Below, piece by piece: positions 530-6,915 of a stretch of 7,789 nucleotides of DNA. This DNA is from a virus (Duplodnaviria > Heunggongvirae > Uroviricota > Caudoviricetes), in the IMG/VR virus record IMGVR_UViG_2671180864_000008; one strand, written 5' to 3'. Numbering within the stretch: the stretch's first letter is position 1; the number at the start of each line of letters is the position of its first letter. The notes beneath the pieces are model-generated. The model made no database searches. It was given only the letters and a program-made list of their open reading frames with translations, and was not told the DNA's origin. A program made the position numbers and the translations under genes.

Positions 530-563
530 GGAGTTTACTCACATCTGACAAAATCAATATAAA

Positions 564-585
564 CAGCCCCTCCGGAGAGGGGCTG
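564..585 (-). terminator. GC-rich perfect hairpin, probable minus-strand (or bidirectional) intrinsic terminator
   Basis: 9-bp perfect stem CAGCCCCTC / GAGGGGCTG with CGGA loop. On the minus strand it is followed by TTTATATTGATTTTGT; on the plus strand there is no U-tract. Confidence 0.4.
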
Positions 586-695
586 GAGAGTGGCGCTATG
601 TGCCATTGCATGGTGCCGGGTGCCTCCCGGTGAATTCAGTACCAGCACCTGAATCCGCGATTATCCCATATACCTACTCGCTGATTGCCCCTCCG

Positions 696-874
696 CACAG
701 GGGGATTCACCATGCCAGTTTCTTTTAACAAACTCCCCGCAAAANNNNNNNNNNNNNNNNNNNNNNNNNNNNNNNNNNNNNNNNNNNNNNNNNNNNNNNN
801 NNNNNNNNNNNNNNNNNNNNNNNNNNCACAGGGGGATTCACCATGCCAGTTTCTTTTAACAAACTCCCCGCAAA
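696..874. repeat. Two identical 48-nt direct repeats (696-743 and 827-874) flanking an 82-nt run of N (745-826)
   Basis: CACAGGGGGATTCACCATGCCAGTTTCTTTTAACAAACTCCCCGCAAA occurs on both sides of the N run. Consistent with a scaffold gap between overlapping contig ends or a collapsed tandem repeat. Confidence 0.8.
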
Positions 875-1571: not shown

Positions 1572-1648
1572 TGGCGCGCTGTACTGGATTCGAACCAGTG
1601 ACCGATTGCTTAGAAGGCAATTGCTCTGTCCGGCTGAGCTAACAACGC
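1572..1648 (-). tRNA. argO: tRNA-Arg, anticodon UCU
   Basis: Hand-folded 77-nt cloverleaf on the minus strand: acceptor GCGTTGT/ACAGCGC, anticodon loop CT-TCT-AA, T-arm ACTGG-TTCGAAT-CCAGT, 3' GCCA. Symbol assumed from the ileZ-argN-argO order I recall for 933W-like phages. Confidence 0.85.
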
Positions 1649-1661
1649 ATGATGCAGATAA

Positions 1662-1738
1662 TGGACCGCCATCGGGGACTTGAACCCCGCGCAGCCAGCT
1701 TCGAAGGCTGGCGCTCTTTCCTGATGAGCTAATGGCGG
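1662..1738 (-). tRNA. argN: tRNA-Arg, anticodon UCG
   Basis: Hand-folded 77-nt cloverleaf: acceptor CCGCCAT/ATGGCGG, anticodon stem CCAGC/GCTGG with loop CT-TCG-AA, T-arm CGGGG-TTCAAGT-CCCCG, 3' TCCA. Symbol assumed from gene order only. Confidence 0.8.
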
Positions 1739-1745
1739 TATGTGA

Positions 1746-1821
1746 TGGTGGCCCTTGCTGGATTTGAACCAGCGACCTGGCGATTATGAGTCGCTCGCTC
1801 TCACCACTGAGCTAAAGGGCC
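1746..1821 (-). tRNA. ileZ: tRNA-Ile2-like, anticodon CAU (lysidine type, ileX-like), or possibly tRNA-Met
   Basis: Hand-folded 76-nt cloverleaf: acceptor GGCCCTT/AAGGGCC, anticodon loop CT-CAT-AA, T-arm GCTGG-TTCAAAT-CCAGC, 3' ACCA. Strongly resembles E. coli ileX as I recall it. Confidence 0.85.
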
Positions 1822-1861: not shown

Positions 1862-2920
1862 TCATCCGTTCTGGCTGACTAAATCCTGTACTTCCCGAAC
1901 CGTCTGCTCAAAACGTTCAGTCTCCAGCTCAACGCCAATTGCACGACGCCCGAGCGCCAGTGCCGCTTTCACTGTCGAACCCAACCCCATGAAAAAATCT
2001 GCAATCAGGTCACCCGGACGACTGCTAGCGCTGATTATCTGCTGCAGCATTTCTGCCGGTTTTTCGCACGGATGTTTCCCGGGATAGAACTGCACCGGTT
2101 TATGCGTCCACACATCGGTATACGGCACCTGCACCGTCACGCCAAAATACCGCCGCAGATGTTTATATTCACTCAGCAGCTCCGCATACTGCCGGTTCAG
2201 TGAGGTATACGTATCCACCAGCTGGTGGTGGAGCTTTTCCAGTTCACCACGCCGATGCTTCTCTTCTGCCACCCGGGCAAACAGCGCCTGTAATTTCAGA
2301 TAATCGCTTTCATTCGGCAACTGCCACTGACCGGCACTGAACCAGTGCGACACCATGTTTTTCTTTCCTGTGGCATCTGCAATCTGTTTTGCCGTTATCC
2401 CCAGGGCAGCTCGCGCATCACGAAAGTAAGAAATCAGCGGGGCCATCACATGCTGTTTCAGTGCACTGCCCTTCGCCGCATACCCGGCATCTTTCGGACG
2501 ATACGGCCCCTGATAATGTTCCGCGAACAGAATGCGCTCTGTGGCGGGGAAATACGCCCGCAGGCTTTCCTTGTTGCATCCGTTCCAGCGTCCGGACGGC
2601 TTCGCCCAGATAATATGGTTCAGCACACTGAAGCGTTCACGCATCATGATTTCGATATCAGATGCCAGGCGATGACCACAGAACAGGTAAAGACTTCCGG
2701 CAGGTTTCAGCACCCGCCAGAACTGCGCCAGACACTGGTCCAGCCACTTCAGGTAATCATCGTCGCCCTTCCACTGGTTATCCCAGCCCTCAGGCTTCAC
2801 TTTAAAGTACGGCGGGTCCGTGACTATCAGGTCAACAGAATTTTCGGGTAACGACCGGATAAATTCCAGGCAGTCGGCGTTGATTAACTCACAACTGGAT
2901 ATTTTTACAGTATTAAGCAT
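1862..2920 (-). CDS. DNA methyltransferase, N6-adenine/N4-cytosine family, beta-class motif order
   Basis: 352 aa with ATG start. DPPY (motif IV) near the N-terminus (TDPPYF) and an FxGxGST-type AdoMet motif near the C-terminus (DFFMGLGST). Position between Q and the tRNAs matches the phage Dam-like methylase of Stx2-type phages. Confidence 0.85.
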   Translation of the reverse strand: MLNTVKISSCELINADCLEFIRSLPENSVDLIVTDPPYFKVKPEGWDNQWKGDDDYLKWLDQCLAQFWRVLKPAGSLYLFCGHRLASDIEIMMRERFSVLNHIIWAKPSGRWNGCNKESLRAYFPATERILFAEHYQGPYRPKDAGYAAKGSALKQHVMAPLISYFRDARAALGITAKQIADATGKKNMVSHWFSAGQWQLPNESDYLKLQALFARVAEEKHRRGELEKLHHQLVDTYTSLNRQYAELLSEYKHLRRYFGVTVQVPYTDVWTHKPVQFYPGKHPCEKPAEMLQQIISASSRPGDLIADFFMGLGSTVKAALALGRRAIGVELETERFEQTVREVQDLVSQNG

Positions 2921-3268: not shown

Positions 3269-3388
3269 GTCTTTTCCTTTTCCGGTTAACGTGACACACC
3301 AATAACTCTTGTCGAAAAAGCCAGCAAGCTGAAAGACAGGTATTCACCGCCACCAGCGCGTTTACTGTACTGACGCGATTTCAGTCAT

Positions 3389-3412
3389 AAAAAACCCGCT
3401 CGGCGGCGGGTT
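3389..3412 (-). terminator. tR'-like intrinsic terminator downstream of the late promoter
   Basis: Minus-strand GC-rich hairpin (AACCCGC-CGCCGA-GCGGGTT) followed by TTTTTT, about 65 nt downstream of the predicted late-promoter start site. Confidence 0.65.
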
Positions 3413-3444
3413 GTAGAAACTCTTCTAACGTCAGGCATAAAACG

Positions 3445-3487
3445 CCCATCGTTATGACGAATTTACCACAGATTCCGGAAAAATCAA
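3445..3487 (-). promoter_or_regulatory. Lambda PR'-like late promoter with sigma70-dependent pause element (candidate qut site)
   Basis: Minus strand reads TTGATT, 16-nt spacer, TGG-TAAATT (extended -10), then CGTCAT, then AACGATGGG. The TAAATT -10 and the AACGAT-GGG pause element at +1 match my recollection of lambda PR'. Lies directly after the Q stop codon. Confidence 0.7.
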
Positions 3488-3492
3488 CCTTG

Positions 3493-4314
3493 TTACCTAG
3501 TTACCTTTTTTAACTGCCGCTCAGCCCATGCTTCTTCAATATCAAACCGGGTCACCAGCGCATCATAAAATTTCTTAACTGTTTTTTCCCATGACGCGCG
3601 TGTTATCTGGTTTGTCACCTCGCATATAGCATTAAATGCCTCCGTTGATGGTAGTCTTTCATAGCCACGACCACCACAACGCTGGCAGTCTCTGATAACA
3701 GGCATACCACGTTTTACCGACTCTTCACGATGAATGGCGACACCACGCCCACGGCAATCCTTACAGGCGGTGGAAACCTCACCCTTTCCGCCACACTCCG
3801 GACAGGCAACTTTTACCACCTCCCTGACTTTTTTCCATTCTTCCCAGTAAGACGGATACACACCTTTCGTACACTTTGCCCATACCGGCGGCTTACCATC
3901 CGGATACTGGATCTTGTTTGTAAAAACCTCGCTTTCAATAAATTTTTTTCCGTGACAGCAGGGGCACTGTTTTTTGCTCGCCGCGCTACGGGCATAATCT
4001 TCAAACGCATACGAAGCCATAATACGCATCACTGCCGGTTTTATTTCTGCCGGGAGTTTTCTTAACGCCGCCACGCGATCACACCGACTGAGTGCATATT
4101 CTGTCAGCAATTCTGTTGCCCGCTCTCTGTCATTCATACTAATGCCCATTTTCCCAAGGAACGCAGAAACCCCCATCTCAGCCCGATTCTGTGTCATGCC
4201 CTGCGCGGCCATCACATCAGTGATACTCAGCGCATCTTTCGACGTTGAGGCCGATGCATCAGTCAGGCCGGGGGATTTTGGGGAGTAGTATTTCGGTAAA
4301 TCTTCCAGTTTCAT
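3493..4314 (-). CDS. Q: Late-gene antitermination protein Q, lambda-Q family, with expanded zinc-binding region
   Basis: 273 aa. N-terminus (KYYSPKSPGLTD... DVMAAQGM) and C-terminus (YDALVTRF... KKVTR) are colinear with phage lambda Q as recalled. Contains four CxxCxGxG-type motifs where lambda Q has two. Start ATG overlaps the rusA stop (ATGA). Confidence 0.85.
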   Translation of the reverse strand: MKLEDLPKYYSPKSPGLTDASASTSKDALSITDVMAAQGMTQNRAEMGVSAFLGKMGISMNDRERATELLTEYALSRCDRVAALRKLPAEIKPAVMRIMASYAFEDYARSAASKKQCPCCHGKKFIESEVFTNKIQYPDGKPPVWAKCTKGVYPSYWEEWKKVREVVKVACPECGGKGEVSTACKDCRGRGVAIHREESVKRGMPVIRDCQRCGGRGYERLPSTEAFNAICEVTNQITRASWEKTVKKFYDALVTRFDIEEAWAERQLKKVTR

Positions 4315-6577: not shown

Positions 6578-6733
6578 TTACTCCTCAGGTTCGTAAGCTG
6601 TGAAGACAGCGACCTCCGTCTGGCCGGTTCGAATTCGTACCTCGCAGAGGTCTTTCCTCGTTACCAGTGCCGTCACTATGACGGTTAAACAGATGACGAT
6701 CAGGGCGATTAACATCGCCTTTTGCTGCTTCAT
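6578..6733 (-). CDS. hokD: Hok/Gef-family type I toxin, 51 aa
   Basis: Translation from the internal ATG at 6733 (MKQQKAMLIALIVICLTVIVTALVTRKDLCEVRIRTGQTEVAVFTAYEPEE) matches HokD/RelF as I recall it. AAGGAG Shine-Dalgarno upstream. The track ORF extends in frame to an ATG at 6790 (70 aa). Confidence 0.85.
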   Translation of the reverse strand: MKQQKAMLIALIVICLTVIVTALVTRKDLCEVRIRTGQTEVAVFTAYEPEE

Positions 6734-6885
6734 AGCCTGCTTCTCCTTGCCTTTCGGCACGTAAGAGGCTAACCTAGATTTGCCGTTCATAGATTGAGCC
6801 TCAGATTAATGTTAAGCGTCTTGCCGGACGCGTAATGTTAACTGGGGCTTTTCTCTATCTGCCTTTTGGTGTTCATGCCTGAGAC

Positions 6886-6915
6886 AGATAGCCTCAAGCA
6901 CCCGCTGCAATTCTA
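6886..6915 (-). promoter_or_regulatory. Candidate hok promoter -10 (TAGAAT) and 5' tac-like element of the hok mRNA
   Basis: Minus strand TAGAAT at 6915..6910. The mRNA 5' segment GGGTGCTTGAGG (about 6898..6887) is complementary to the 3' segment CCTCAATGCACCC (about 6531..6519), consistent with the fbi/tac fold-back typical of hok mRNAs. Confidence 0.4.

Follow-up and report, generated by a model that had tools for sequence, protein, structure and literature searches.

A long-arm lambda Q-family antiterminator in an Escherichia coli lambdoid prophage region, with a likely second zinc ribbon

The viral DNA analysed here (IMG/VR record IMGVR_UViG_2671180864_000008, Caudoviricetes; 7,789 nucleotides (nt), referred to throughout as the window) encodes an antiterminator of the lambda Q family that carries four cysteine motifs. 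All features described below lie on the minus strand. In the order of that strand the window holds hok/sok, two small open reading frames (ORFs), a DUF968 (YdfU-like) gene, rusA, the Q gene, and the late promoter pR' with its terminator tR'. Past tR' follow an ORF of 65 amino acids (aa), an N6/N4 DNA methylase gene, three tRNA genes and the small RNA (sRNA) STnc100 beside a run of N. The neighbourhood is that of a typical lambdoid prophage late-control region.

The Q gene occupies 3493..4314 and encodes 273 aa plus the stop, with an ATG start at 4314 and a TAA stop at 3495..3493. An earlier reading of the sequence by a model, hereafter the original prediction, had reported the gene at this place and left its strand unstated; the ORF list, Pfam, phmmer and genome annotations support a real gene that is read from the minus strand. 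The rusA stop codon and the Q start share 4 nt (ATGA, 4311..4314). The protein matched Pfam PF03589 with 179.2 bits (E=1.6e-53; gathering cut-off 26.7), PHROG 127, ‘anti-termination protein Q-like’, spans residues 1-273, and phmmer aligned the protein with lambda Q (7ubm_Q, from the 7ubm/4mo1 entries) at E=3.5e-41. In E. coli genomes with 98% identity, the same gene is labelled ‘antitermination protein’. Neither the Q21 (PF06530) nor the Q82 (PF06323) family appeared in the Pfam scan of Q at E<=1, and both were rejected, as was a relic of an HNH endonuclease (PHROG 559, E=0.0017), where the match was due to the cysteine motifs alone. A further entry, PF27659.1, is a precomputed Pfam match in most relatives (P0001-P0120); it was not reported for the window protein because the entry was missing from the local Pfam copy.

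In lambda Q, the N-terminal 44 residues, together with NusA, refold to form a torus within the RNA exit channel, residues 61-113 and 153-207 form the body, a four-helix bundle with a helix-turn-helix, and residues 114-152 form the arm, a zinc ribbon in which C118, C121, C144 and C147 bind one Zn and which touches positions 11-13 of the Q-binding element (QBE) and sigma region 4 (Yin et al. 2022, PMC9388147). The N-terminal segment, the body and the C-terminal zinc ribbon of the lambda protein (PDB 4MO1, 7UBJ-7UBN) are colinear with the window protein, and the agreement at both ends described in the original prediction was recovered by phmmer as two blocks, Q residues 1-113 on lambda 1-113 and Q 182-273 on lambda 116-207. 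Residues 1-44 (4183..4314) are identical to lambda Q 1-44 at 23 of 44 positions and include G39, which is at least 90% conserved in a 79-sequence alignment; from this sequence match we infer that they are the counterpart of the lambda torus/nozzle segment, with a function assigned by homology. The helical body fold is present, with its first half in residues 45-113 (3976..4182) and its second half in residues 219-273 (3493..3660, including the stop), which align with lambda 153-207 and for which AlphaFold2 (AF2) predicted helices at 223-231 and 239-272.

Between the two phmmer blocks, residues 114-181 of Q (3772..3975) stand opposite lambda 114-115. The insertion is thus 68 residues long, lies exactly at the junction of body and arm, and amounts to a net gain of 66 residues over lambda Q, within the 65-80 residues that had been estimated. 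The inserted module, which is delimited by the gap in the lambda alignment, the conserved cysteines and the AF2 secondary structure, consists of motif 1 (C117/C120), a long β-hairpin with a variable tip, and motif 2 (C171/C174), and is absent from lambda Q. It is followed by the lambda-type zinc-ribbon arm (residues 182-218, 3661..3771), which comprises motif 3, a 22-residue hairpin and motif 4, and is homologous to lambda Q 116-152. All four motif strings quoted in the original prediction are exact in the protein: CPCCHGKK at residues 117-124 (3943..3966), CPECGGKG at 171-178 (3781..3804), CKDCRGRG at 184-191 (C184/C187; 3742..3765) and CQRCGGRG at 210-217 (C210/C213; 3664..3687). Three of them are exact CxxCxGxG repeats, and the first has K for the last G. 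Lambda Q (207 aa, NC_001416) has two, CRDCHGTG at 118 and CGRCKGVG at 144, as had been noted, so that the window protein differs from it by two more CxxCxG motifs and a long β-hairpin in addition to the extra residues. The four motifs are not a product of chance, since 200,000 shuffles of the Q composition contained 0.03 CxxCxG motifs on average (P(>=2)=4e-4), and none of them had four.

The cysteines are strongly retained among relatives. In the 79-sequence alignment, which reaches down to 26% identity, C184, C187, C210 and C213 never vary, and conservation is at least 90% at C117, C120, C171 and C174; the original prediction would have been weakened by a lack of conservation in the extra pairs, and the alignments point the other way. 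None of the eight cysteines varies in a 43-sequence alignment of the arm. Relatives often have CxC in place of CxxC as motif 3, with both cysteines retained. Compared with phage phi80 Q, the inserted module is the best-kept region of the protein, with 36 of 68 residues identical versus 12 of 54 in the C-terminal body, and this suggests that the module is under functional constraint. It is very improbable that the extra cysteines are a metal-free relic of a decaying prophage gene. The gene does lie in a prophage, and its K-12 relative QuuQ belongs to the cryptic prophage Qin, but the eight cysteines and their flanking glycines are kept across Enterobacterales down to ~30% identity, the same architecture occurs in the viable phages phi80, ES18 and mEp460-like phages, and the cassette downstream of the window gene is intact. 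A comparison of the Q protein with itself (BLAST) showed no internal repeat other than the motifs, and for this reason the ribbon formed by motifs 1 and 2 is not claimed to be a duplicate of that formed by motifs 3 and 4.

Among 1.84 billion representatives (clustering at 50% identity), a search returned 234 relatives. Four Cx(1-2)CxG motifs were found in 28 of the 46 representatives of 195-300 residues; in these, motifs 1 and 2 lie anywhere from 14 to 63 residues apart, while the spacing is always 13 between motifs 2 and 3 and 25 or 26 between motifs 3 and 4. The window protein, with spacings of 54/13/26, fits this informal phi80-type long-arm subgroup (variable/13/25-26). In a scan of one genome per species across Enterobacterales, about 68 of 80 loci had the four-motif pattern, a share that overestimates the long forms, as the scan used patterns from 14 sequences favouring them; this weighs against the reading given next. 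Long arms were found in Escherichia, Klebsiella, Enterobacter, Kluyvera, Serratia, Xenorhabdus, Photorhabdus, Pantoea, Erwinia, Yersinia, Edwardsiella, Hafnia, Pectobacterium, Sodalis and Tatumella, and among named proteins in phi80 Q, ES18 gp73, the Q of a Stx2c phage and E. coli K-12 QuuQ/YdfT. Among phage records, 131 of 249 match Q as one full-length piece, while those of the lambda/P22/HK97 type align in two. The four-motif arm predominates in the family, with lambda Q as a reduced outlier, so the rarity implied for the insertion in the original prediction does not hold. With most members carrying it, the insertion is widely shared within a Q subgroup, a finding that the original prediction itself had named as speaking against it. 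The window protein is an ordinary member of a known family; a near copy (at least 80% DNA identity), labelled ‘antitermination protein’, is present in 2,495 of 5,426 complete E. coli genomes.

The closest points of comparison are two named long-arm proteins. Phi80 Q (gp17, JX871397 41137..41946, 269 aa) has the same four-motif arm, with motifs at 115/169/182/207 and a spacing of 54/13/25; it is ~40% identical to the window protein overall and differs in motif 3, which is CxC in phi80 and CxxC in the window. Phi80 Q was reportedly studied experimentally beside lambda Q by Guo & Roberts in 2004. K-12 QuuQ/YdfT (b1559, cryptic prophage Qin, 250 aa) is 40% identical to the window protein and has its motifs at 113/148/161/187, with a spacing of 35/13/26. 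Its hairpin between motifs 1 and 2 is shorter, and its motif 4 ends in GNR, not GRG. A DUF968 gene lies upstream in both cases, whereas K-12 is without rusA between ydfU and Q, where the window has it. Some Q genes in the data set probably have a different origin: 207-aa Q genes with a lambda-like pR' were found in assemblies labelled Bacillota, Collinsella, Pseudomonas, Psychrobacter, Tardiphaga and Oceanobacillus (L155, L156, L159-L163), several of them on short contigs or with low coverage in the record title, and most likely represent contamination of the assemblies with phage lambda DNA.

As all eight cysteines are conserved down to ~26-30% identity, a second Cys4 zinc site in Q is likely. 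The pairing of the cysteines was approached through lambda. HMMER and MAFFT agree in placing the two lambda motifs on Q motifs 3 and 4, and lambda 118-152 aligns with Q 184-218 without gaps, with the same 26-residue motif spacing and with shared residues other than the cysteines. C184, C187, C210 and C213 thus correspond to lambda C118, C121, C144 and C147, and motifs 3 and 4 are assigned to the lambda-type site because they are homologous to the solved Zn-binding ribbon of lambda; this assignment leaves motifs 1 and 2 for the extra site. Two independent AF2 models, of the full-length protein and of the arm only, place β-strands 125-136 and 159-170 precisely in the interval from motif 1 to motif 2, and such a hairpin would bring these two motifs together at its base. 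Over 51 aligned residues, the arm-only model is 35% identical to the lambda Q arm. The two zinc sites are therefore predicted to be arranged in tandem (motifs 1+2 and 3+4) rather than nested.

The original prediction had likened the arm to a DnaJ-type cysteine-rich domain that could form a second zinc centre, which would imply nested centres, with motifs 1+4 near the body and motifs 2+3 at the tip. The second centre is plausible from the conservation of the cysteines, while the DnaJ-type nesting fared less well and we consider it unlikely: the spacing of 13 residues between motifs 2 and 3 and the matches to anti-TRAP leave room for it, but the pairing 1+2 and 3+4 is favoured by the homology to the lambda Zn site and by the hairpin that the models place between the first two motifs. 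The DnaJ cysteine-rich profile PF00684 scored 30.1 bits against Q, below its gathering cut-off of 32.7. Pfam gave no match in Q to a J domain or a DnaJ C-terminal domain, and full-length DnaJ models reached 27.9 bits against a cut-off of 377. Membership of the DnaJ family was rejected on these grounds. Precomputed Pfam matches of most relatives do include PF00684, and one NCBI entry is titled ‘chaperone protein DnaJ’. Compared with the DnaJ cysteine-rich domain and anti-TRAP, the window module lacks an accompanying J or client-binding domain, sits in an antiterminator that binds DNA and RNA polymerase, and probably has a tandem or permuted pairing. Positions 1-52 of the 65 in the PF00684 profile aligned to Q 171-218, and the motif order looks permuted relative to DnaJ, with Q motifs 2, 3 and 4 taking the places of DnaJ motifs 1, 2 and 3. 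On that mapping, DnaJ Zn2 (motifs 2+3) would be the lambda-type site, and the partner of Q motif 2 would be motif 1, on its N-terminal side.

Two points limit the tandem reading: the pairing rests on homology and predicted secondary structure, and the relatives that phmmer found in the structure database included no solved four-motif (long-arm) Q. Searches of the accessible literature found no discussion of a second site in long-arm Q, and a viral fold library gave no match to the Q arm at E<=0.001, with weak hits to cysteine-rich and DnaJ-like phage proteins only. On balance we hold it to be quite probable that the ORF encodes a lambda Q-family protein of the phi80-type, long-arm form from an E. 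coli lambdoid prophage, with a second Cys4 ribbon and its zinc sites in tandem. A further-reaching and doubtful proposal is that the two ribbons constitute a circularly permuted DnaJ-type two-zinc module of which the lambda arm is the degenerate half, the variable hairpin being a second arm in contact with RNA polymerase, NusA or DNA. If this were true, most lambda-Q-family proteins would load unlike lambda Q, for example in their NusA dependence or their contacts with sigma region 4.

Directly downstream of Q lies the cassette on which such a protein is expected to act. The original prediction had placed a cognate promoter at 3445..3487, and the elements were found there on the minus strand. 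The late promoter pR' (3460..3487), aligned to lambda pR', has a -35 TTGATT (3487..3482), a 16-nt spacer and a -10 TAAATT (3465..3460). The putative QBE is the spacer itself (3481..3466), with TCCGGAA at 3479..3473. A sigma-dependent pause element follows 6 nt past the -10 (3445..3453), made up of the -10-like AACGAT (3453..3448) and GGG. The -10, the 6 nt and AACGATGGG (3453..3445) have the same sequence and spacing as in lambda pR'. An intrinsic terminator, tR' (3385..3412), was found by terminator scan ~45-65 nt past the start site, with a G+C-rich stem (3412..3393) and then a U-run. The leader RNA of pR' folds with -24.1 kcal/mol (z=-2.96), and a terminator occurs at the equivalent place in nearly all related loci.

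This layout is kept in close relatives and is met again at four-motif Q loci of diverse kinds. Relatives down to 54% protein identity retain the spacer block TTTTCC[C/G]GAA.CTGTG. Close relatives carry the pause hexamers AATGAT, AATAAT, AACAAT, AACTAT and AAAGAT, all of which retain A2 and T6, the positions needed by a -10-like element. Lambda also has Q directly upstream of pR', where TAAATT-6 nt-AACGATGGG makes up an identical pause arrangement, and likewise has a terminator; the window terminator is much nearer the start site, as the aligned lambda pR' region is without one within that distance, and the promoter spacers differ in sequence and in length (16 nt in the window, 17 nt in lambda). 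In the pR' spacer of phi80, the record marks TCGCGGA as the Q-binding site, to which TCCGGAA corresponds by position in the window; the phi80 site is followed by AACGCTGGG and a terminator. Downstream of QuuQ the order is TAAAAT-AACGATGGG-terminator.

Two side observations concern the same cassette. In the virus record IMGVR_UViG_2734482560_000006, the Q protein is 100% identical over residues 1-273 and continues to 284 aa; the downstream cassette is without the promoter part, and after the stop the sequence resumes at ...CTATGGGCG, which suggests a small deletion joining the end of Q to the leader. In the window, the first hairpin of the pR' leader (3426..3454) pairs AACGA of the pause hexamer with a downstream UCGUU/CGUUA. 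Other lineages have other hexamers with fitting complements, TAGTG/CACTA (Photorhabdus, Pantoea), GATGA/TCATC and TGGTGG/CCACCA. At least four of the six hexamer bases were paired in the minimum free energy fold in 35 of 52 distinct leaders (loci L084-L163), a count that ignores phylogeny; this compares with 16.2±3.3 in controls whose tails were shuffled and 25.8±3.4 (maximum 34) in controls whose tails were exchanged between leaders of different hexamers.

The conserved spacer bears on a second proposal of the original prediction, that the insertion might alter recognition of the qut site (the QBE) or of RNA polymerase. In its strong form, the inserted module would re-target Q to another QBE or another RNA polymerase surface and thereby confer a distinct specificity. 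In favour of this, the insertion is in the arm, the part of lambda Q that touches QBE positions 11-13 and sigma region 4 (PMC9388147), and the promoter spacer of the window, TTTCCGGAATCTGTGG, is unlike the TATTGAATAAAATTGGG of lambda. At loci L084-L112 (54-97% protein identity), however, the block TTTTCC[C/G]GAA.CTGTG is constant while motifs 1 and 2 are 34, 36, 41, 52, 54, 57 or 58 residues apart. Two-motif and four-motif Q proteins also share the same promoter geometry, a -10, 6-7 nt and a -10-like hexamer with GGG, and differences in QBE sequence are expected from the residues of the body and the arm alone. We therefore regard re-targeting as improbable, and altered QBE recognition through the insertion is not supported, as relatives have the same promoter spacer at motif spacings from 34 to 58. 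Since the hairpin varies in length while the putative Q-binding DNA stays constant, the hairpin is unlikely to set DNA specificity, and its variable tip is probably an accessory surface element. Contact of the module with RNA polymerase, NusA or the DNA backbone is possible.

By homology, a model can be proposed in which the window protein works as lambda Q does. Its helix-turn-helix body and zinc-ribbon arm would bind the QBE between the -35 and -10 of the adjacent late promoter, while RNA polymerase waits at the AACGAT sigma-dependent pause. Entry of the conserved first 44 residues into the RNA exit channel would follow, after which the polymerase, now modified, would pass the terminator at 3412..3385 into the small ORF, the DNA methylase gene, the three tRNA genes and beyond. 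In this scheme, residues 114-181 most likely form a second, independent Cys4 ribbon in which motifs 1 and 2 clamp the base of the long β-hairpin, and motifs 3 and 4 would form the site known from the lambda Q crystal structure.

As a gene, the window Q carries little weight for discovery; its annotation as an antiterminator is routine, and almost half of the complete E. coli genomes have it. A modest interest lies in the fact that structural and mechanistic knowledge of the family comes entirely from lambda Q, a protein without the extra ribbon of most members. Q proteins gate the late genes of prophages, and similar ones are present in the genomes of phages that convert their hosts to Shiga toxin (Stx) production. 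A structure of a long-arm loading complex would thus test how representative the lambda model is.

The remaining features of the window flank this late-control block. Furthest downstream, STnc100 is a full-length Rfam match (RF02076, 133.6 bits; 555..744) and directly adjoins an 82-base run of N (745..826), which represents masked or unresolved sequence. The three tRNA genes (1572..1821) have the anticodons CAT, TCG and TCT; the CAT tRNA is Met according to ARAGORN and tRNA-Ile in the annotation of a related genome. A tRNA set also follows Q in Stx and other lambdoid prophages, and the one in the window probably resembles it. The N6/N4 DNA methyltransferase (352 aa, 1862..2920; PF01555, 7.9e-42) is encoded between the Q-controlled terminator and the tRNA genes, and its expression presumably has to await Q-mediated read-through. 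In the closest E. coli genome (H1), the methyltransferase gene is missing from this place, and the tRNA genes come straight after Q. At the other end of the block, a Hok/Gef toxin ORF (PF01848, 3e-23) lies beside the sok antisense RNA (RF01794, 112 bits; together 6578..6903), upstream of DUF968, rusA and Q. The Qin prophage of K-12 is similar, with hokD followed by rem, ydfU and ydfT/QuuQ.
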